Position numbers and translations under genes: made by a program. The notes under the pieces were generated by a model. The model saw only the letters and a program-made list of their open reading frames with translations, was not told where the DNA came from and searched no databases. A stretch of 64,000 bases of DNA. It comes from a bacterium (lineage in GTDB: Bacteria; Patescibacteriota; Patescibacteriia; JAACEG01; JAGUWE01). The stretch is taken from the NCBI GenBank assembly GCA_043798995.1, contig JAZDOD010000011.1:4737-68736 (forward strand). The letters run 5' to 3'. Position 1 is the first letter of the stretch, and the number at the start of each line of letters is the position of its first letter. Below, in pieces: positions 11,909 to 59,900 of this stretch.

Positions 11909-12075
11909 GTCATTGCGAGTCATGCCTTTGACAGGGTGTGGCAATCTCATACTTTTTTTGTCATCCTGAACGGAGTGAAGGATCTCACGGGAGGCCATAA
12001 GCCGACCCGTGTTTTTTTCGCGGGTCGCAAGCTCCCGCGAGATTCCTCGGGCTACACCCTCGGAATGACATTTAA
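11909..12075. repeat. Two adjacent MITE-like elements (TGTCATTGCGAG...GCAATCTC end, then a TGTCATCCTGA...GAATGACAT element with nested hairpins)
   Basis: First matches the left end of the GIY-YIG unit at 28841; second is paralogous to 17881-18025. Confidence 0.6.
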
Positions 12076-12756: not shown

Positions 12757-12852
12757 TGTCATTCCTGCGGAAGCAGGAATCCAGAGAAGTTATTTTATCA
12801 ACCAATCCTGACAAATTAAAATCTAGATTCCGCATCAAGTGCGGAATGACAT
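12757..12852. repeat. MITE-like element, family A (TIR GTCATTCC/GGAATGAC enclosing two palindromic hairpins)
   Basis: TGTCATTCCTGCGGAAGCAGGAATCCAGA ... GATTCCGCATCAAGTGCGGAATGACAT; same ends as the GIY-YIG unit at 19161-19542. Confidence 0.65.
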
Positions 12853-14029: not shown

Positions 14030-15058
14030 ATGTCAACTCTTTCACTTAAACCACCAAAAATTATCGCTGTTTTAGGAACAACCGCTTCGGGCAAAACCAA
14101 GCTGGCAGTTAGATTAGCTTATCTGTTTAATGGTGAGATTGTCTCAGCTGACAGCCGACAGGTTTATCAAGGTATGGATATCGGGACAGGGAAAGATCTT
14201 GACGATTATATCATCAAAGTCAAAAGTCCCATGCCTACCGGCCCGCTTCGCCGTAGCTTCAGCGAGGCGAGCAGGCAGGAAAAGTCAAAAGTCAAAATTT
14301 TTGAAATTCCATATTATTTAATTGATGTGGTAAGCCCCAAAAAGCAGTTTAATCTGGCGGATTATCAACGTTTGGCTTATCAGGCAATTGATAAAATTTT
14401 AAAAAAAGGCAAACTGCCAATCTTAGCCGGCGGCAGCGGACTCTACCTTCAGGCCGCGGTTGATGGCTGGCTTTTATCAAAAGCAAGACCAGACAGAAAA
14501 TTACGCCAAGAATTAGAAAAGAAGAAAACGAGCTGGCTTTTTTCTTTTTTAAAGAAACTGGATAAAGATTTTGCTAAAAAAGTCAGTCAAAGTGATCAAA
14601 AAAATAAAAGGCGACTGATTAGATATATTGAAATAAAATTAGTCGAGACAAAGAGATTGCCACACTCCTTTCAATCGCTCGCAATGACAGGAGGTGGATA
14701 TGATACCTTACTTCTCGGCCTTACTTATCCCAAAGAAACTTTAAACCAAAGAATTGATAAAAGACTGGAGGAGCGGCTTGAACAAGGTCTGATTGAAGAA
14801 GTTAAAAGATTGCGTCAACAAGGTTTAAACTGGCAGCGTTTAGAGCAATTCGGCCTGGAGTATAAATTTGTGGCTTATTATCTGCAGGGCAAATTAGATT
14901 ATGAAGAAATGGCAGAAAAATTAAAAACAGCAATTCAGCAATTTGCTAAAAGGCAACTTACTTGGTTTCGGCGCTGGCAGAAAATGGGGGCTAAAATTCA
15001 TTGGATAAAAAGTGAAAATGAGGCCAAAAAATTGATTAAAAAATTTTTAAAAAGATAA
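14030..15058 (+). CDS. miaA: tRNA dimethylallyltransferase
   Basis: P-loop GTTASGKT, SADSRQVYQGMDIGT, LAGGSGLY; ~25 extra residues from repeat at 14226-14285. Confidence 0.9.
   Translation: MSTLSLKPPKIIAVLGTTASGKTKLAVRLAYLFNGEIVSADSRQVYQGMDIGTGKDLDDYIIKVKSPMPTGPLRRSFSEASRQEKSKVKIFEIPYYLIDVVSPKKQFNLADYQRLAYQAIDKILKKGKLPILAGGSGLYLQAAVDGWLLSKARPDRKLRQELEKKKTSWLFSFLKKLDKDFAKKVSQSDQKNKRRLIRYIEIKLVETKRLPHSFQSLAMTGGGYDTLLLGLTYPKETLNQRIDKRLEERLEQGLIEEVKRLRQQGLNWQRLEQFGLEYKFVAYYLQGKLDYEEMAEKLKTAIQQFAKRQLTWFRRWQKMGAKIHWIKSENEAKKLIKKFLKR
14226..14285. repeat. Palindromic repeat (family E) inserted in frame in miaA
   Basis: GGCCCGCTTCGCCGTAGCTTCAGCGAGGCGAGCAGGCAGG is the reverse complement of the repeat at 39950-40010; flanked by AAAGTCAAAAGTC direct repeats. 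Confidence 0.5.
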
Positions 15059-19160: not shown

Positions 19161-19542
19161 TGTCATTCCTGCGGAAGCAGGAATCCAGACGATTAAAGAT
19201 CATAATACAGATCTTGCCAGTTAGGATTTGATTTTTCAATTAATTCTAATTTCCATTTTCTCTTCCATTTTTTTAATCTTTTTTCACCCTCGATAGCACT
19301 TTCTATACTAGCCGTTTCTTCGTAATAAACTAAATTATGGATTTTATACTTTTTCGTAAAACCGGAAATTAAATCGTTTTTATGTTCGTAAATCCTCTTT
19401 TTTAAATTTGATGTCACTCCGATATATAGAGTACCATTTCTTTTACTTGCCAAGATATAAACGTAATAAGATTTCATTGTTTTCTGGATCCCGCATCCCG
19501 CCTGCATTAAAATTACGGCGGGCAGGCAAGTGCGGGATGACA
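19161..19542. mobile_element. ~382-bp GIY-YIG-encoding unit bounded by inverted hairpin ends (TGTCATTCCTGCGGAAGCAGGAATCCAGA ... TCTGGATCCCGCAT...GTGCGGGATGACAT)
   Basis: Both ends occur fused, without the gene, as the 61-bp MITE at 55868-55928. Confidence 0.6.
19193..19477 (-). CDS. GIY-YIG nuclease family small protein
   Basis: MKSYYVYILASKRNGTLYIGVTSNLKKRIYEH...; the first 22 codons of the listed ORF lie in the right hairpin end, so start moved to M23. Confidence 0.8.
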   Translation of the reverse strand: MKSYYVYILASKRNGTLYIGVTSNLKKRIYEHKNDLISGFTKKYKIHNLVYYEETASIESAIEGEKRLKKWKRKWKLELIEKSNPNWQDLYYDL

Positions 19543-27832: not shown

Positions 27833-28432
27833 ATGGTGAACCCAAGCGTTAAAATTTCAAACATTATAACTAAAGACAATTATTTCAACAAACGAACTGG
27901 TCTTACTCTTATTGAGTTATTGGTAGTGATTGCTATCGTTGGTATTTTGTCTACCTTAACTATCATCACAATTAACTCCGCTAAAGCCAAAGCCCGAGAT
28001 GCCAAAAGAATGCATGACACCCGTCAAATCATTATTGCCTTGTCAATGTATTATCAAGATTATGGCTATTATCCCAAATATACTTTTAATTGCGGTTTTT
28101 TGATGAACTTTGGTGCAGAATGCTCAGGGGCAGATCCTTCTAATTTTTTAAAGCCGTTGCAAGACGCTGGTTATTTTGCCCAGACACCCGTTGATCCACT
28201 TAATAACGGGGGCTATTTTTATTATTATTTAAGTTACGCATGTGAGTTAACATTGGGTGGTAGTAGTCCAAATTATAATTCCAATACCCCAACAAATTAC
28301 GTACTTTGGTGGCAATACGAAAAAGCAAACAGAACCTGTGATAGCATCATTTATAATTTATGCAAAGTACCTCCTAATCAAGTGGATATTACCGGGTGGA
28401 TGAGTCACGCTGCTTGCAATTATAGTCAATAA
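27833..28432 (+). CDS. Type IV pilin-like protein (class III signal peptide)
   Basis: Prepilin motif KRTG-LTLIELLVVIAIVGIL with Glu at +5. Confidence 0.75.
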   Translation: MVNPSVKISNIITKDNYFNKRTGLTLIELLVVIAIVGILSTLTIITINSAKAKARDAKRMHDTRQIIIALSMYYQDYGYYPKYTFNCGFLMNFGAECSGADPSNFLKPLQDAGYFAQTPVDPLNNGGYFYYYLSYACELTLGGSSPNYNSNTPTNYVLWWQYEKANRTCDSIIYNLCKVPPNQVDITGWMSHAACNYSQ

Positions 28433-28459: not shown

Positions 28460-28828
28460 ATGTCTCAAAACCCCGCCACTCAAGCGCTAAAATTTGTCCT
28501 GGTTGATTTAATCGGGGATGTTTTGTATTTTCCAATTTGGTGGTATAACGAGGGGTTGAAGAAAACCACCAATTTTTGCTTAAACCAAATTCGCGATATG
28601 GAAAAGAGTTTGGCTCTTAGAGTATGGCTCGTTAATTTTTTTGTGCCGATGTACGGCCAATATGATTGGCAGGGCCGGCTCATCAGTGTTTTTATGCGTT
28701 TTGCCCAGATTATTTATCGGATAATTGTGATTATTTTCTGGTCAATTTTAATTGCTTTACTTTTTTTAATTTATTTGATTCTGCCGTTTTTTGTTTTGAT
28801 TCAGATTTTATTGGTGATTGTTTCGTAA
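28460..28828 (+). CDS. Hypothetical membrane protein
   Basis: Hydrophobic C-terminal half (IIFWSILIALLFLIYLILPFFVLIQILLVIV). Confidence 0.45.
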   Translation: MSQNPATQALKFVLVDLIGDVLYFPIWWYNEGLKKTTNFCLNQIRDMEKSLALRVWLVNFFVPMYGQYDWQGRLISVFMRFAQIIYRIIVIIFWSILIALLFLIYLILPFFVLIQILLVIVS

Positions 28829-28840
28829 GGAATTTTTTTC

Positions 28841-29230
28841 TGTCATTGCGATCCGCCAGCTGGCGGAGAAGCAATCTCTTCCTTAATTTATGAAACACAA
28901 AAAATACTATGTCTATATAATGACTAATAAAACTAACTCCACGCTTTATAGCGGTGTAACAAATAATCTTAAAGAGAGAGTCTATCAACATAAAGGCAAA
29001 TTAATCGAAGGATTTACTAAAAAGTATAACATTAATAAATTAGTTTATTATGAGGAGTTTAACAATGCTTACGATGCAATCGCTCGAGAGAAACAAATTA
29101 AAGCGGGTTCAAGGAAAAAGAAAATTGAACTAATTGAGAAAGAAAATAAAAATTGGAAGAATTTAAGCGAAGATTGGTAAAGTGAGATTGCCGCGTCGTC
29201 CTGCCTGCGGCGGGACTCCTCGCAATGACA
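28841..29230. mobile_element. ~390-bp GIY-YIG-encoding unit with symmetric ends (TGTCATTGCGA-hairpin-GCAATCTC ... GAGATTGC-hairpin-TCGCAATGACA)
   Basis: 11-bp TIR TGTCATTGCGA/TCGCAATGACA plus inner inverted pair GCAATCTC/GAGATTGC; isolated ends at 11909 and 50748. Confidence 0.6.
28890..29180 (+). CDS. GIY-YIG nuclease family small protein
   Basis: YYVYIMTNKTNSTLYSGVTNNLKERVYQHK; paralog of 19193-19477. Confidence 0.8.
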   Translation: MKHKKYYVYIMTNKTNSTLYSGVTNNLKERVYQHKGKLIEGFTKKYNINKLVYYEEFNNAYDAIAREKQIKAGSRKKKIELIEKENKNWKNLSEDW

Positions 29231-29244
29231 AAAACACAAACTCC

Positions 29245-32013
29245 ATGCCGGAAAATAAAAAAATAGAATCAACCCCGCAACTTATCAATTGCCCGACTTG
29301 TGCCGGCAGAGGCAAGGTTGAAGGAAAAACCTGTCCTTTTTGTTTAGGTTTGGGCCAGATGGCTTTCTTGGACGGCCAGTTTTTATATTGGGATAAAAAA
29401 ATCAGCTTTTTAGCTATTCTTCAGCGAAAAACCGAACAGACGGTCAAAAATATTTTGGAGTTTAGTTTGTTTTTCTTTGGCATTTTGGGTTTGACCGTCT
29501 TGGCTTGGGAAATTTGGCAAGTTGGCGCCGCCAATTTTTTTAACTGGGAATATTTTTTCCATCAGGAAAAAATCATGCTTATCTTCTGGTTGAGTATTCT
29601 GACCGATATGTATTTTTTTTATCGTAAAGACCGAGAATTTACCGCCAAAGAAAAAGTCAGAAAAAGAAAATATGGCGCAATAGAAATACCCTTGGTTTTA
29701 GAAGAAAATTACTGGCCGGATTTAGCTAAAATTGCCAAAGACAATAAAATTGAAGTTTCACAGGTGATGTCGCAGGAAGCATTGATTGCCGTTGAACAAT
29801 CCTGGCAGATGGCCCAGCGCCTAAAACTTAAAGAAGTTTTACCAATTCATCTTTTAGCTCATTTATTTTTTTCTGATAAAGTAAGAATTATTTTTGCCCG
29901 ATTAGGCATTAATGTTGAGGAAGTGCTGACTAAAATCAGGCATTTAATTGAAGGGGGGAATCACCCTCCGGAAGAAGCGCCCGGCATTTCTCCCGAGCTT
30001 AAGCAGATTTTTTTCTGGGCTTATCAACATGCCTTCCTCAGCCAGCGGAAGGAAGTTGATGTGGTGGAATTGCTTTTGGCCTTAAGCCAGAAAAATCCGA
30101 GTATCCAGGATTTATTTTTGGACTTGGAAATTGATCAGGATAAAATTAGAAATGTAGTTGAGTGGGTCAAGATTCAGGAAAGCTTAAGGCAGCGCTGGCT
30201 GCGCTTCAGGCATCGGGCTGCCTGGAAGCCCAAGGGCTCAATGGATCGGGCTATGACAGCTGTGGCCACGCCCTTTTTGGATTATTTCAGCCAGGACTTG
30301 ACATTATTAGCCAAAATGGGTTATTTAGATTTATGCGTTGGCCGGGAAAAAGAAATAGAAGAAATTTTTCGGGTCATTGAAGCCAATCGGCAGAGCGTGA
30401 TTCTGGTCGGCAATCCCGGCGTGGGCAAAACCACCATTATTGAAGGCATTGCCGGATTGATGGTTTCGGAAGATGTGCCGAATCTCATTCAGGACAAAAG
30501 GTTTGTCAGTTTAAGCGCGGCCAAATTAATTAGCGGCGCTTCTCCCTCCGAGGCCCAAGGCCGGCTTTTAAGCGTTATTGAAGAAATCCGACGCGCCGGC
30601 AATATTGTTTTGTTTATCAGCGATATCCAGGAAATGGTTGGCATTACCCCCGGCGGCGAAGAAAGTTTAGATTTGGCCGGAGTGCTTTTCCAAGCGCTGG
30701 CTAAAAATTATTTTTTCTGTTTTGCTACCACCACGCCGTCTGATTACACCCGTTATTTGGAAGCAGCTTCGGGTTTAAGTCAGGTTTTTCAGAAAATTGA
30801 GGTTGCCGAGCCGGATGTTAATCAGACGATTCAGATTTTGGAAGCTAAAAGCGCCCGCATTGAAGCGCAAAACCAAGTTTATTTTTCCTATAATGCCATA
30901 GAAAGAACGGTTCAGCTGGCTATCCGCTATATTCACGATAGATTCCTGCCGGAAAAAGCCATTCGCATTTTGGAACAGGTGGCAATTTATGCGCAAAAGA
31001 AAAAAGGCGCTAATACCATTGTTGGAGCTGAAGATGTGGCGGAAATAATTTCTCAAAAAACCAACATTCCGGTAACCAAAGTGACCGAAGAAGAATCGGA
31101 AAAACTTTTGACTCTGGAAGACAAAATTCACGAGAGAATAGTTGATCAAGAAGAAGCTGTTAAAATAGTGGCCTCGGCCTTGCGCCGGGCCAGAGCAGAA
31201 CTCAGAGACATTAAGCGGCCGATTGTTAATCTGCTTTTCTTGGGTCCGACCGGCGTTGGTAAAACCGAAGTTTCCAAAACCGTGGCTGAAGTCTACTTCG
31301 GCTCCGAAGAAAATATGATTCGTTTGGATATGAGCGAATATCAGGAGCAGACCAGCGTCTATCGGATGATTGGCTCGCCTCTGGGCAGGCAGCGAGAGCC
31401 CGGCTACTTAACCGAAGCGGTCAGAAATAATCCTTTTTCTTTGGTACTCCTAGATGAAGTTGAAAAAGCTCATCCGGATATTTTAAATTTATTTTTACAA
31501 GTAATGGATGATGGTCGTCTGACTGATAATTTAGGCCGGACTATTGATTTTACCAATGTCATTTTAATCGCCACTTCCAATGCCGGCACCGGTTTTATTC
31601 AGGAAAAAATGAAAGAAGGTTGGTCGGTTGAAAAAATTAAACAAGGATTAATTGAGATGGAAATTAAGCAATATTTTCGGCCGGAATTTCTCAACCGTTT
31701 TGACGGCATTGTGGTTTTTAAACCTTTGAGTATGACCGAAGTGGTAGAAATCGCTAAATTACTTTTAAAGAAAGTTGCCCAAAGATTAGTTGACAAAGGA
31801 ATTAATTTAGAAGTCAGTGATGAAGCCGTTTCAGAATTAGCCCAGGCCGGTTTTGACCCGCAATTTGGCGCGAGACCCTTGCGGCGTGTCATCCAAGAGC
31901 GAATTGACGACAGTTTAGCCCATTATTTACTGACTCAAAAACTTAGCCGTCGCGACACCATTGTTTTTCAAGCCGGGGGAGTGATTGAAGTGAAAAAAGC
32001 CAGGAAGTTGTAA
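29245..32013 (+). CDS. Membrane-anchored ClpA/ClpC-like double AAA+ ATPase with N-terminal DnaJ-type zinc finger
   Basis: CPTCAGRGKVEGKTCPFCLGLG, two TM helices, Clp-N repeats, Walker A GNPGVGKT and GPTGVGKT, TGF loop; start moved to M22 of listed ORF. Confidence 0.85.
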   Translation: MPENKKIESTPQLINCPTCAGRGKVEGKTCPFCLGLGQMAFLDGQFLYWDKKISFLAILQRKTEQTVKNILEFSLFFFGILGLTVLAWEIWQVGAANFFNWEYFFHQEKIMLIFWLSILTDMYFFYRKDREFTAKEKVRKRKYGAIEIPLVLEENYWPDLAKIAKDNKIEVSQVMSQEALIAVEQSWQMAQRLKLKEVLPIHLLAHLFFSDKVRIIFARLGINVEEVLTKIRHLIEGGNHPPEEAPGISPELKQIFFWAYQHAFLSQRKEVDVVELLLALSQKNPSIQDLFLDLEIDQDKIRNVVEWVKIQESLRQRWLRFRHRAAWKPKGSMDRAMTAVATPFLDYFSQDLTLLAKMGYLDLCVGREKEIEEIFRVIEANRQSVILVGNPGVGKTTIIEGIAGLMVSEDVPNLIQDKRFVSLSAAKLISGASPSEAQGRLLSVIEEIRRAGNIVLFISDIQEMVGITPGGEESLDLAGVLFQALAKNYFFCFATTTPSDYTRYLEAASGLSQVFQKIEVAEPDVNQTIQILEAKSARIEAQNQVYFSYNAIERTVQLAIRYIHDRFLPEKAIRILEQVAIYAQKKKGANTIVGAEDVAEIISQKTNIPVTKVTEEESEKLLTLEDKIHERIVDQEEAVKIVASALRRARAELRDIKRPIVNLLFLGPTGVGKTEVSKTVAEVYFGSEENMIRLDMSEYQEQTSVYRMIGSPLGRQREPGYLTEAVRNNPFSLVLLDEVEKAHPDILNLFLQVMDDGRLTDNLGRTIDFTNVILIATSNAGTGFIQEKMKEGWSVEKIKQGLIEMEIKQYFRPEFLNRFDGIVVFKPLSMTEVVEIAKLLLKKVAQRLVDKGINLEVSDEAVSELAQAGFDPQFGARPLRRVIQERIDDSLAHYLLTQKLSRRDTIVFQAGGVIEVKKARKL

Positions 32014-34364: not shown

Positions 34365-34449
34365 ATTTTGGAAGGGTCGCATTGCGCCTCTTCGGCGCAT
34401 TTATGCGCCAAGTTGGCGCATCCGCCGTTGAGGCGGAAGTGGAAAATAT

Positions 34450-34710
34450 ATGTATTATTTTTATGTTTTACAATTTAAGAATAATAAAAAATTATATAAA
34501 GGAATTACAAATAATTTAAGAAAAAGAATAACAGATCATCGTTCTGGTCAGTCAAAATTTACTTCACGAAACGGCGATTTTAATTTAATTTTTTATGAAG
34601 CGTATTTAGATAAAAGAGATGCCATAGAGGCGGAAAGATATTTTAAGAGCGGTCACGGCAGAGAAGTATTGAGGCAAAAATTAAAATATTATTTTGGAAG
34701 GGTCGCATAG
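34450..34710 (+). CDS. GIY-YIG nuclease family small protein; C-terminus overlaps tRNA-Ser
   Basis: MYYFYVLQFKNNKKLYKGITNNLRKRITDH; stop codon TAG at 34708-34710 inside the tRNA. Confidence 0.8.
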   Translation: MYYFYVLQFKNNKKLYKGITNNLRKRITDHRSGQSKFTSRNGDFNLIFYEAYLDKRDAIEAERYFKSGHGREVLRQKLKYYFGRVA

Positions 34711-34780
34711 TGGTCTAGTGCGCCTGCTTGGAGAGCAGGTATGCCGCAAGGCATCGCGAGTTCAAATCTCGCCCCTTCCG
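34696..34780 (+). tRNA. tRNA-Ser (anticodon GGA)
   Basis: Hand-folded: acceptor GGAAGGG/CCCTTCC, 3-bp D stem, anticodon stem CCTGC/GCAGG loop TTGGAGA, long variable arm ATGCC-GCAA-GGCAT, T-loop TTCAAAT, discriminator G. Confidence 0.85.
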
Positions 34781-34848
34781 TTTGAGTTTTTTGCGGCAAA
34801 AATTATCAAAGCACTTGGCGTTTCTATTGAGGAGTTAATAAAATAACT

Positions 34849-39547: not shown

Positions 39548-39680
39548 CCCCACTTAGTGGGGTCATCCCGAGTGCAGCTCCGTCTAACGGAGCGAAGTCG
39601 AGGGATCCCGTTTAATGAAATAAGAGATCCTCGCGTCGTCCCGCCTTTGGCGGGACTCCTCAGGATGACAAGAAAGTAAT

Positions 39681-48191: not shown

Positions 48192-48196
48192 AAACT

Positions 48197-48230
48197 GGGG
48201 GGTCGTCTAATGGTAGGACACCAGCCTTTT
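48197..48230 (+). other. Diverged duplicate of tRNA-Gln 5-prime half, ending in the anticodon loop
   Basis: GGGGGGTCGTCTAATGGTAGGACACCAGCCTTTT vs TGCGGGATCGTCTAATGGTAGGACCGCGGCCTTTG. Confidence 0.45.
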
Positions 48231-48306
48231 CCGCCGGAGGCGGACTCGCCTTTTCCGCCAAAGGCGGATCTGCCTTGGGCATGAGGCGAGGAAGCCGAAA
48301 ATAAAA

Positions 48307-48645
48307 ATGTATTACACTTATATATTAAAAAGCAAAAAAGACGGAATTCGTTATGTTGGTAGCGGTGAAGATGTATTAGAAAGATTACGTCGGCATAATA
48401 AAGGTGACCATCAATTTACAAAAGGGCACCGACCTTGGGAATTAATTTATCAAGAAAAATATAGCACAAGATCAGAAGCTATGAGGCGTGAAAAATTTTT
48501 AAAATCAGGTCAAGGAAGAAAAATTTTAGATGAGGTTCTCGGCAAGGCTGCGGGATCGTCTAATGGTAGGACCGCGGCCTTTGAAGCCGTTAATCATGGT
48601 TCGAATCCATGTCCCGCAGCCTTGCCGAGAAATAGTAAAGAGTAG
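48307..48645 (+). CDS. GIY-YIG nuclease family small protein; reading frame runs through tRNA-Gln
   Basis: MYYTYILKSKKDGIRYVGSGEDVLERLRRHNKG; last ~30 codons overlap the tRNA, true C-terminus uncertain. Confidence 0.7.
   Translation: MYYTYILKSKKDGIRYVGSGEDVLERLRRHNKGDHQFTKGHRPWELIYQEKYSTRSEAMRREKFLKSGQGRKILDEVLGKAAGSSNGRTAAFEAVNHGSNPCPAALPRNSKE
48549..48619 (+). tRNA. tRNA-Gln (anticodon TTG)
   Basis: Hand-folded: acceptor TGCGGGA/TCCCGCA with U1-A72, D stem GTCT/GGAC, anticodon stem GCGGC/GCCGT loop CTTTGAA, T stem CATGG/CCATG loop TTCGAAT, discriminator G. Confidence 0.85.
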
Positions 48646-48720
48646 GAGAGACGGCCTTTTCCACTGGGGGCGGACTTGCTTGTCCCGCCTTGGCGGGGCG
48701 GCCTCCTTGCCCCGCTATAG

Positions 48721-48760
48721 GCGGGGTGAAGAGCCGTTAATCATGGCCCGCCCCGCACCA
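48721..48760 (+). other. tRNA-Gln 3-prime-half-like fragment ending in CCA
   Basis: TGAAGAGCCGTTAATCATGG matches the tRNA from anticodon loop through T stem, then CCCGCCCCGCACCA. Confidence 0.35.
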
Positions 48761-50674: not shown

Positions 50675-50771
50675 ATAATCCGCCGTCTCCGCCATCCACC
50701 AACTGGCGGAGGCGGAAACAGCGGATCAAACTTCGGCAGATTGCCTATAATGTCATTGCGAGATTAAACAT

Positions 50772-54667: not shown

Positions 54668-54790
54668 GTCATTCCCGCGGAAGCGGGAATCCAGACGCCG
54701 TTCCTGCGAAAGCAGGGAGCCAGGGGATGTGGATTCCCGTTTTCACGGGAATGACAAAAAAAGAAAAAGTGCGGGATGACAAATAGAACG
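54668..54790. repeat. Compound MITE-like hairpin repeats (family A variants)
   Basis: TGTCATTCCCGCGGAAGCGGGAATCCAGA ... GGATTCCCGTTTTCACGGGAATGACA ... GTGCGGGATGACA. Confidence 0.6.
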
Positions 54791-55867: not shown

Positions 55868-55960
55868 ATTTTGACTTCTTCTCTTTGTCATTCCTGCGGA
55901 AGCAGGAATCCAGAGCTGGATCCCGCATCAAGTGCGGGATGACATAGATGAGGCACAGGA
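55868..55960. repeat. MITE: fused left and right ends of the GIY-YIG unit (gene deleted) plus extra hairpin
   Basis: TGTCATTCCTGCGGAAGCAGGAATCCAGAGCTGGATCCCGCATCAAGTGCGGGATGACAT. Confidence 0.7.
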
Positions 55961-56550: not shown

Positions 56551-56700
56551 TTTTTACCCTGTCATTCCGGACTCCCTTCTGTCATTCCTGCGAAACTTGT
56601 CCTCGAGAAATCGGGGAGCAGGAATCCAGGAGAATTGATATGGTTCCCCGTTTTCACGGGGACGGAGTCTGGATCCCGTATCTAGTACGGGATGACAAAG
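56551..56700. repeat. Cluster of MITE-like hairpin repeats (family A variants)
   Basis: GTCATTCCGG..., TGTCATTCCTGCGAAAC...GCAGGAATCCAGG, GGTTCCCCGTTTTCACGGGGACGG, GGATCCCGTATCTAGTACGGGATGACA. Confidence 0.6.
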
Positions 56701-59391: not shown

Positions 59392-59460
59392 TTCTCTTTG
59401 TCATCCCGCACTTGATGCGGGATCCAGCTCTGGATTCCTGGTCAAGCCAGGAATGACAGA
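59392..59460. repeat. MITE (reverse orientation of the fused-end element, variant hairpin)
   Basis: TGTCATCCCGCACTTGATGCGGGATCCAGCTCTGGATTCCTGGTCAAGCCAGGAATGACAGA. Confidence 0.65.
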
Positions 59461-59757: not shown

Positions 59758-59900
59758 TTATTTGTTTAAATTTTCGATTCCATTAATATATGTCATTCCT
59801 GTGAAAACAGGAATCCAGAGCTGGATCCCGCATCTACCGCCTTTGGCGGGACAAGCAAGTGCGGGATGACAATAAGAGAAATTCAGGATGACATTGAAAA
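59758..59900. repeat. Compound repeat: TTTGTTTATTTGTTTAAATTTT end plus family-A MITE hairpins
   Basis: Shares terminus with 50489 and 60150; contains ATTCCTGTGAAAACAGGAAT and CCGCCTTTGGCGGG. Confidence 0.55.

Follow-up and report, generated by a model that had tools for sequence, protein, structure and literature searches.

A 96-aa GIY-YIG protein gene lies among variant hairpin repeats and is probably a member of the Ssn nuclease family

A 390-bp unit on contig JAZDOD010000011.1 (GCA_043798995.1) carries a single gene for a small GIY-YIG protein which, judging from its homology to SsnA of Neisseria, is very probably a member of the Ssn family, and the hairpin modules that flank this gene are its candidate cognate recognition hairpins. 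The unit was read directly and by repeat search in the whole stretch of 64,000 nt that we analysed (the window). The Ssn family was founded by SsnA (Chenal et al., Nat Commun 2025; PMC11893778). In that work, ssnA was described as encoding a 94-aa single-domain GIY-YIG protein (cd10448) and as being associated across bacteria with the Neisseria repeat NTS (CGTCATTCCCGCGMAVGCGGGAATCYRG). SsnA binds NTS solely as single-stranded DNA (ssDNA) and on one strand, not as double-stranded DNA (dsDNA) or RNA, and it cuts a few nucleotides upstream; the C right after the palindrome is most critical for binding, and the three nucleotides preceding the palindrome are most critical for cutting (PMC11893778). 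Ssn homologues cleave their own repeat variants, a repeat was found at 71% of the homologue loci and on both sides at 42%, and the repeat-ssn-repeat layout, the co-evolving pairs and the analogy with insertion sequences (IS) have already been stated (PMC11893778). The unit is thus a known kind of system, explained by published work, with a variant hairpin. What is added here is the occurrence of its TTGC-type module in more than 10 phyla, together with stem covariation, gene-less doublets, polymorphism between genomes, an empty site and a correlation between protein subfamily and module type.

We regard the homology to SsnA as decisive for this probable assignment. The target protein matched Pfam PF01541 (GIY-YIG) over residues 5–78 with an E value of 1.3e-15, and no second domain was found. 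In a pairwise comparison, it was 48% identical to the N. gonorrhoeae SsnA orthologue (E 2e-30), and tblastn gave an E value of 1e-14 at the N. gonorrhoeae locus, where the Ssn paper takes E < 1e-10 against N. meningitidis SsnA as its homology criterion. The ORF of the N. gonorrhoeae orthologue is 94 aa long, and its Y6, Y17 and E64 carry the same numbers as the residues mutated in the Ssn paper; they align with Y9, Y20 and E67 of the target protein, which are invariant in 32 homologues. In addition, the protein matched PDB entry 1zg2 (UPF0213) with an E value of 1e-3, and the NCBIfam search with the target protein gave no match. Its relatives at 60–80% identity number in the thousands, all of them named merely 'GIY-YIG nuclease family protein', and the identity between phyla is 60–70%.

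Table 1. Positions of the gene, the hairpin modules and related repeat features in the 64,000-nt window.
Feature	Position	Strand	Details and evidence
Left TTGC-type hairpin module	28841..28878	+	inner hairpin TCCGCCAGCTGGCGGA, tail CTC; sequence, repeat search, fold
Putative ssn-family gene, 96-aa single-domain GIY-YIG	28890..29180	+	ORF list, Pfam, homology
Right hairpin module, inverted	29184..29230	-	reads TGTCATTGCGAGGAGTCCCGCCGCAGGCAGGACGACGCGGCAATCTC on the - strand; sequence, module scan
Solitary complete TTGC-type module, directly past the thrS stop codon	11908..11948	+	thrS by Pfam
Other-stem module after the copy past thrS	11960-11984	+	
Other-stem module after the copy past thrS	12041-12069	-	
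Solitary complete TTGC-type module within the miaA ORF (14030-15058)	14655..14689	-	in frame; miaA by Pfam (IPPT)
Head-only remnant TGTCATTGCGAG	50751..50762	+	without the closing GCAATC half
Paralogous putative Ssn unit	19161..19542	-	gene 19193-19477 between NTS-like modules
Gene-less inverted doublets, spacers 8-70 nt	39562-39669, 12758-12850, 54668-54755, 55887-55943, 56581-56696, 59400-59457, 59792-59870		

The gene is the sole substantial ORF between the unit ends. Direct reading and repeat search confirmed the claim of the initial annotation that a perfect 11-bp terminal inverted repeat (TGTCATTGCGA at 28841–28851 and its reverse complement TCGCAATGACA at 29220–29230) encloses 390 bp with no gene other than that of the 96-aa GIY-YIG protein. 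At 93%, this repeat reaches 15 nt (TTTCTGTCATTGCGA at 28837–28851 and TCGCAATGACAAAAA at 29220–29234). An 11-bp inverted repeat within 400 bp is by itself unremarkable in 64 kb; the recurrence of the 11-mer, in contrast, exceeds chance, as it was seen eight times in the window with up to one mismatch when 0.89 was expected, and none of 100 shuffles reached eight. The inner hairpins and the inverted pair that had been described inside these ends are also present: the left hairpin is TCCGCCAG/CTGGCGGA (28852–28867), the right one is GTCCTGCC-TGC-GGCGGGAC (29198–29216, with one T:G pair), and GCAATCTC at 28871–28878 is the inverted counterpart of GAGATTGC at 29184–29191. However, the ends are not a bare terminal repeat. 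Each of them is a full hairpin module built of TGTCA, ATTGC, GA, a GC hairpin, GAA, GCAAT and CTC, and the stem that encloses the inner hairpin is formed by ATTGC with GCAAT. The left module, whose TGTCA head is directed away from the gene and whose counterpart sits upstream of homologues in many phyla, had a predicted DNA fold of -9.4 kcal/mol (z = -2.6). The right module stops 14 nt ahead of the ATG of a ClpC-like gene (29245); its fold alone was weak (z = -0.5 to -1.0), and its inner hairpin pairs better on the + strand, through the T:G pair, than on the predicted recognised strand, where a C:A mismatch results. The GCGAAGC heptamer is a very stable DNA mini-hairpin, and the short form of the TTGC module contains it. 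A reading of GUC...GAG...GAA as a hammerhead or other ribozyme was dropped, as there was neither a CUGAUGA core nor an Rfam match, and a literature search using the end sequences returned primers only.

To examine the flanks of homologous genes, we collected 80 genomic loci from Patescibacteria, cyanobacteria, Bacteroidota, Bacillota, Desulfobacterota, Chloroflexota, Planctomycetota, Verrucomicrobiota, Elusimicrobiota, Proteobacteria and others. A TTGC-type module flanks close homologues across more than 10 phyla. Left (L, +) and right (R, -) TTGC modules were found around homologues in Saccharibacteria, Buchananbacteria, Bacillota, Desulfobacterota and Chloroflexota, and also in Planctomycetota, Ignavibacteria, cyanobacteria and others. 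The flanks are uniform: (T)GTCATTGCGAG...GAAGCAATCTC lies 0–50 nt upstream of the gene, and GAGATTGC...CTCGCAATGACA lies at the stop codon, often overlapping it. All 75 intact homologues examined had a module with a GTCA head within 160 nt of the gene, and modules stood on both sides at 65 of the 76 loci with sufficient flank. These counts bear out the proposal that the gene and its ends belong together. The nearest flanking heads pointed outward at 29 loci (as in the target), inward at 15 (as in Neisseria) and in tandem at 21; this varying orientation indicates a gene set among its repeats, not one delimited by fixed ends.

From 248 unique TTGC modules, 24–68 nt long, we derived the consensus tGTCATTGCGAg-variable-cGaaGCAATCtc; TGTC and AT...AT are present in all modules. 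Constant in all module types are the GTC before the stem, the A:T pair opening the stem and the C directly after it, and this invariant frame, GTC-A...T-C, corresponds in sequence to the positions published as critical for SsnA. When the window was searched with the published pattern of the 'Ssn-related motif' (SRM), HGTCWYN(0-2)YYVSBRHN(0-5)WNVSBRGN(0-2)RNCYNB, no TTGC-type module was matched, and four NTS-like modules were. By its sequence, the TTGC type appears to be a variant of this motif, one set apart as far as the published search pattern goes.

We then asked whether the two halves of the module stem change together, using the 5' half only (TGTCA-N4-GA) as the anchor and scoring the complement followed by TC as the matching closing half. 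Matching closures were found for 209 of 241 anchors with a TTGC stem, 13 of 16 with TTCT, 7 of 8 with TCCT and 4 of 5 with TGCT. The non-TTGC anchors together had 51 matching closures; 6.3 were expected, and none of 2000 permutations gave more than 15. Closures of one type on anchors of another were nearly absent. Furthermore, the right arm of the target is identical at 35 of 44 positions to the module at 39626–39669, and six of the nine differences make up a compensatory stem change from GCAA/TTGC to AGGA/TCCT. These results demonstrate that the 4-bp stem of the module covaries and that its structure is selected.

Protein subfamily and module type also go together. The distance between proteins of different module types exceeded that within types by 0.048, compared with 0.000 ± 0.014 in 5000 permutations (p = 0.001, a value that draws on few non-TTGC loci, 9 + 2, and ignores relatedness), and seven of nine proteins of the 'CTGA type' had a nearest neighbour of the same type. 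The initial annotation had proposed two GIY-YIG subfamilies with cognate ends and had named the lack of such a correlation as the result that would speak against them; a correlation was seen, and the two paralogues of the window each have their own module type.

Scanning the window for GTCA plus 4 nt, followed by their complement plus TC, yielded about 25 modules of two builds (Table 1). In the first, a short stem (TTGC, TCCT, TTCT, TTCC or TCCC) is followed by a GA(G)...GAA internal loop and an inner hairpin; the second is a plain 8-bp hairpin, TGTCAT-TCCYGC-loop-GCRGGA-ATCCAG. Two solo left-end copies had been reported initially, and both exist, but the one past thrS proved to be a complete module, with a decayed inner hairpin and a fold z of about 0, and the other is only a 12-nt head, with AGATTGCC, the beginning of an inverted module, just upstream. 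A further complete copy, inside miaA, had been missed. It is translated as ..RLPHSFQSLAMT.. / ..KRLPHSFQSLAMTGG.. and resembles the intragenic repeats of the Rickettsia palindromic elements.

The window holds four GIY-YIG ORFs: the target, 19193–19477, 34450–34710 and 48307–48645. The product of 19193–19477 (94 aa) is 57% identical to the target, and its gene lies between one module at 19487–19542 (TGTCATCCCGCA..TGCGGGATCCAG, with a nested hairpin in the loop) and another at 19161–19188 (TGTCATTCCTGCGGAAGCAGGAATCCAG). In three NTS-like modules (19487–19541, 56581–56626 and 59824–59870), a second, unrelated GC-rich hairpin (e.g. CTTGTCCCGCCAAAGGCGG) is nested in the loop, and hairpin loops seem to be preferred insertion points. 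The gene-less inverted doublets have a REPIN-like form, and several of their stem types have no matching GIY-YIG gene in the window.

The two remaining GIY-YIG ORFs are about 30% identical to the target, lack such modules and adjoin tRNA genes. The ORF at 34450–34710 (about 32% identical to the target) ends within tRNA-Ser(GGA) at 34695–34781, and an 18-nt sequence, ATTTTGGAAGGGTCGCAT, which includes the first 13 nt of this tRNA gene, is duplicated directly upstream of the ORF (34366–34383); the arrangement suggests that a GIY-YIG cassette at 34366–34781 entered the tRNA gene and rebuilt the 5' end of that gene. At 48196–48760, the ORF 48307–48645, an intact tRNA-Gln(UUG) (48549–48621) and GC-rich hairpins lie between the halves of a degenerate tRNA-Gln-like copy; the 5' half of this copy (about 48196–48230) extends as far as the anticodon loop, and its 3' half lies at about 48727–48760. 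An intron-split tRNA around this GIY-YIG gene was considered and discarded, since ARAGORN called none.

By analogy with Neisseria SsnA, the Ssn protein would bind the TTGC module only as folded ssDNA, on the strand reading TGTCA...TC, and the cleavage that follows would fall a few nucleotides to the 5' side of the TGTCA head; the predicted cuts at the unit fall on the + strand just left of 28841 and on the - strand just right of 29230. It is from this analogy that we infer both the TTGC module as the substrate of the target enzyme and the position of the cut. The single strands may be exposed in replication, in the uptake of transforming DNA or in repair. The gene sits within its own repeat family, which is also present as solitary modules and gene-less inverted doublets. 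The Neisseria enzyme restricts incoming transforming ssDNA (PMC11893778). A type IV pilin-like gene with an N-terminal methylation motif (27833–28432) lies two genes upstream of the unit, and it may be relevant should the nuclease, as in Neisseria, target transforming ssDNA that enters the cell.

The spacers between consecutive L(+)/R(-) pairs were bimodal, with 66 pairs at ≤ 60 nt and 34 at 250–450 nt, the latter containing the gene. Gene-less doublets occurred in five to six near-identical copies within single 5-kb loci (L030, L042 and L067). In two related Desulfobacterota (L016 and L019), whose flanks are 82% identical and whose aligned gene region shows few differences, L016 has, relative to L019, a 155-bp insertion that carries a doublet and lies within the loop region of the R module of the gene. 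Among orthologous Nostoc loci, five of six large indels bear module sequences. The intergenic site of the unit itself was compared through its neighbours, since the ClpC-like gene has relatives at 75–83% identity. In one related genome (L082), the genes corresponding to the 122-aa and ClpC flanking genes of the target are 61 nt apart (541–602), with neither module nor gene between them. In another (L081, 3566–4000), the same site holds a gene for a DUF559 (PF04480) nuclease with its own hairpins, CCCCCTTTGCAAAGGGGG / CCCTCCTTTTAAAAAGGAGGG, so a second pairing of small nuclease and hairpin uses the same spot. The site thus exists in three states, with the Ssn unit, empty and with the DUF559 gene. 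Collectively, these results demonstrate that modules and doublets multiply and are gained and lost between related genomes, and the presence/absence polymorphism that had been suggested as a check was found, the unit being an insertion relative to the empty site.

The arrangement resembles REPIN/RAYT systems, with the repeats in the part of the REPINs and the gene in that of the RAYT. We put forward, as a tentative possibility, that the Ssn nuclease and the hairpin doublets form a mobile system in which a hydrolytic GIY-YIG ssDNA nuclease drives the copying of doublets, the doublets enter hairpin loops and, in frame, genes, and the cassette crosses phyla. If this were true, the system would belong to a class undemonstrated so far, one without an HUH, DDE, serine or tyrosine enzyme, and the TTGC module, which has a purine internal loop, would represent a recognition architecture of its own and might serve as a second programmable ssDNA-cutting specificity.

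The initial annotation read the unit as mobile, and the insertion relative to a related genome agrees with this; that it moves as a fixed unit bounded by terminal repeats is uncertain. An autonomous IS-like transposon, in which the 390-bp unit itself moves, the GIY-YIG protein is the transposase and the modules and doublets are decayed or non-autonomous derivatives, is a doubtful reading, and it overlaps with the Ssn explanation without being exclusive of it. The terminal inverted modules, the empty intergenic site, the multi-copy gene-less doublets and the module-bearing indels all fit such a transposon, and the layout was remarked on in the Ssn paper (PMC11893778). The closest homologues of the target protein (80% and 73% identity) are likewise found in unrelated gene neighbourhoods, and the protein identity between phyla points to horizontal transfer; identical proteins, however, shared one context in all samples that were looked up, so that the sign of recent transposition, identical proteins in several contexts, was not seen. 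Against a transposon also speak the varying orientation of the flanking modules and the finding of only one TTGC-type gene in 64 kb. Target-site duplication was not found in 101 unique L/R pairs, in which matches of at least 3 nt occurred in 1–8% compared with 1–3% in controls. Phages gave no matches, and plasmids gave very few, of which only one was close. To our knowledge, GIY-YIG enzymes only hydrolyse DNA, and we know of no strand-transfer or joining chemistry for them.

A homing-type selfish gene, whose nuclease would cut gene-less L/R doublets so that repair copies the gene in with the modules as homology arms, is improbable. Gene-less and gene-containing L/R pairs do coexist with the bimodal spacer described above, and the gene is tightly packed between its modules, with the stop codon often overlapping GAGATTGC. 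Nevertheless, the arms are just about 35–45 bp long with a variable inner part, the gene is apparently single-copy per type, and the protein has no DNA-binding domain like that of I-TevI or the Seg enzymes. Moreover, SsnA cuts ssDNA outside the repeat and not dsDNA in a spacer (PMC11893778).

The strand on which the modules fold bears on whether they act as DNA or RNA. For 242 of 280 unique modules, prediction gave the strand reading TGTCA a higher stability than the complementary one. This preference was seen among left as well as right modules, whose positions are on opposite strands of the genome, and it gives indirect support to the predicted recognition of ssDNA on one strand. That the same strand is favoured at both ends argues for a DNA-level, end-symmetric role over a role in the mRNA, although the asymmetry is modest evidence because it is partly due to the conserved purines and the 280 modules are not independent tests. 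Modules that act as RNA (untranslated-region structures, terminators or processing sites), with a regulatory association to the gene, are very improbable: the modules do occupy the untranslated 5' and 3' regions of the gene, the T:G pair of the right module would be a wobble pair on the mRNA strand, and REP-like elements are often transcribed, but besides the strand preference, Rfam gave no family match at the modules (only two tRNAs and noise, whether at the gathering threshold in the entire window or at E ≤ 10 in 28780–29300), the promoter and terminator scan returned no terminator-like sites and promoter-like sites at background level, and SsnA does not bind RNA (PMC11893778).

No site-specific nucleases restricted to ssDNA were known before the Ssn enzymes, whose value as tools grows with each defined pair of enzyme and hairpin. 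The present locus points to a large clade, spread over many phyla, with a differently built hairpin, in which a stem that is short and covaries is followed by a conserved G/A internal loop and an inner hairpin free to vary. Three observations bear on how these repeats spread: gene-less doublets in multiple copies, insertions within hairpin loops and the empty orthologous site. In addition, 'orphan' CGTC-type REPs are tied here to a candidate enzyme in bacteria of the candidate phyla.

Like the SsnA/NTS system, the target encodes a protein of about 95 aa whose single domain is GIY-YIG; the two proteins are 48% identical, and the catalytic Y, Y and E are kept. Both genes have inverted hairpin repeats on either side, in which a YGTC head precedes a stem opened by an A:T pair and a C follows the stem. 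In both, the repeats are also dispersed in the genome, and different paralogues go with different repeats. The hairpins differ in build: the ATTGC/GCAAT stem of the target has 5 bp and is interrupted, whereas the NTS stem is contiguous over 8–9 bp with a loop of 4–5 nt. In the TTGC type, the stem is followed by a purine internal loop, GA(G)...(C)GAA, which is conserved, and by an inner hairpin that varies between 5 and 45 nt; the tail is CTC where that of NTS is CYRG. The heads face outward at the target and inward in Neisseria, and the host of the target is a Patescibacteria-like genome.

CGTC-tagged REPs, among them dRS3 of Neisseria and RPE-4/RPE-6 of Rickettsia, were described as having no transposase of their own; they combine a CGTC or TGTC tag with an A-T-opened stem of 8–9 bp, a loop of 4–5 nt and a CCA tail (Di Nocera et al. 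2013; PMC3733652). Like them, the modules described here have an unpaired CGTC/TGTC tag at one end and A-T in the first two stem pairs, form inverted dimers and lie in some copies within genes. The plain-hairpin NTS-like modules of the window fit this description, including the contiguous 8–9 bp stem, the 4–5 nt loop and the CCA tail. The TTGC type departs from it: its stem is interrupted, its inner part is long and variable, and a CCA tail is lacking. No associated gene was found for the CGTC-tagged REPs (PMC3733652), whereas the modules here flank a putative ssn gene.

With REPIN/RAYT and IS200/IS605 systems, the unit shares hairpin repeats recognised as ssDNA, which is a prediction here, and the lack of target-site duplication. 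As in these systems, multi-copy inverted doublets behave as the replicating unit (66 L/R pairs at ≤ 60 nt here), and the nuclease gene has its own repeats on both sides and mostly occurs once per repeat type. The enzyme differs, being an HUH tyrosine (Y1) transposase in REPIN/RAYT and IS200/IS605, which forms a covalent intermediate and both cuts and rejoins, and a hydrolytic GIY-YIG protein only in the target. RAYTs are mostly vertically inherited, whereas the target-type protein and module are near-identical across phyla. The GIY-YIG homing endonucleases I-TevI and Seg have the same catalytic domain and are likewise encoded by small, selfish-looking intergenic genes, but they carry a C-terminal DNA-binding domain, reside in introns or phages and act on a long dsDNA site, whereas the 96-aa target has neither such a domain nor such a residence and is predicted to act on ssDNA hairpins. 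Finally, the unit differs from classical IS elements and MITEs with terminal inverted repeats in having no target-site duplication and no DDE, HUH, serine or tyrosine transposase.
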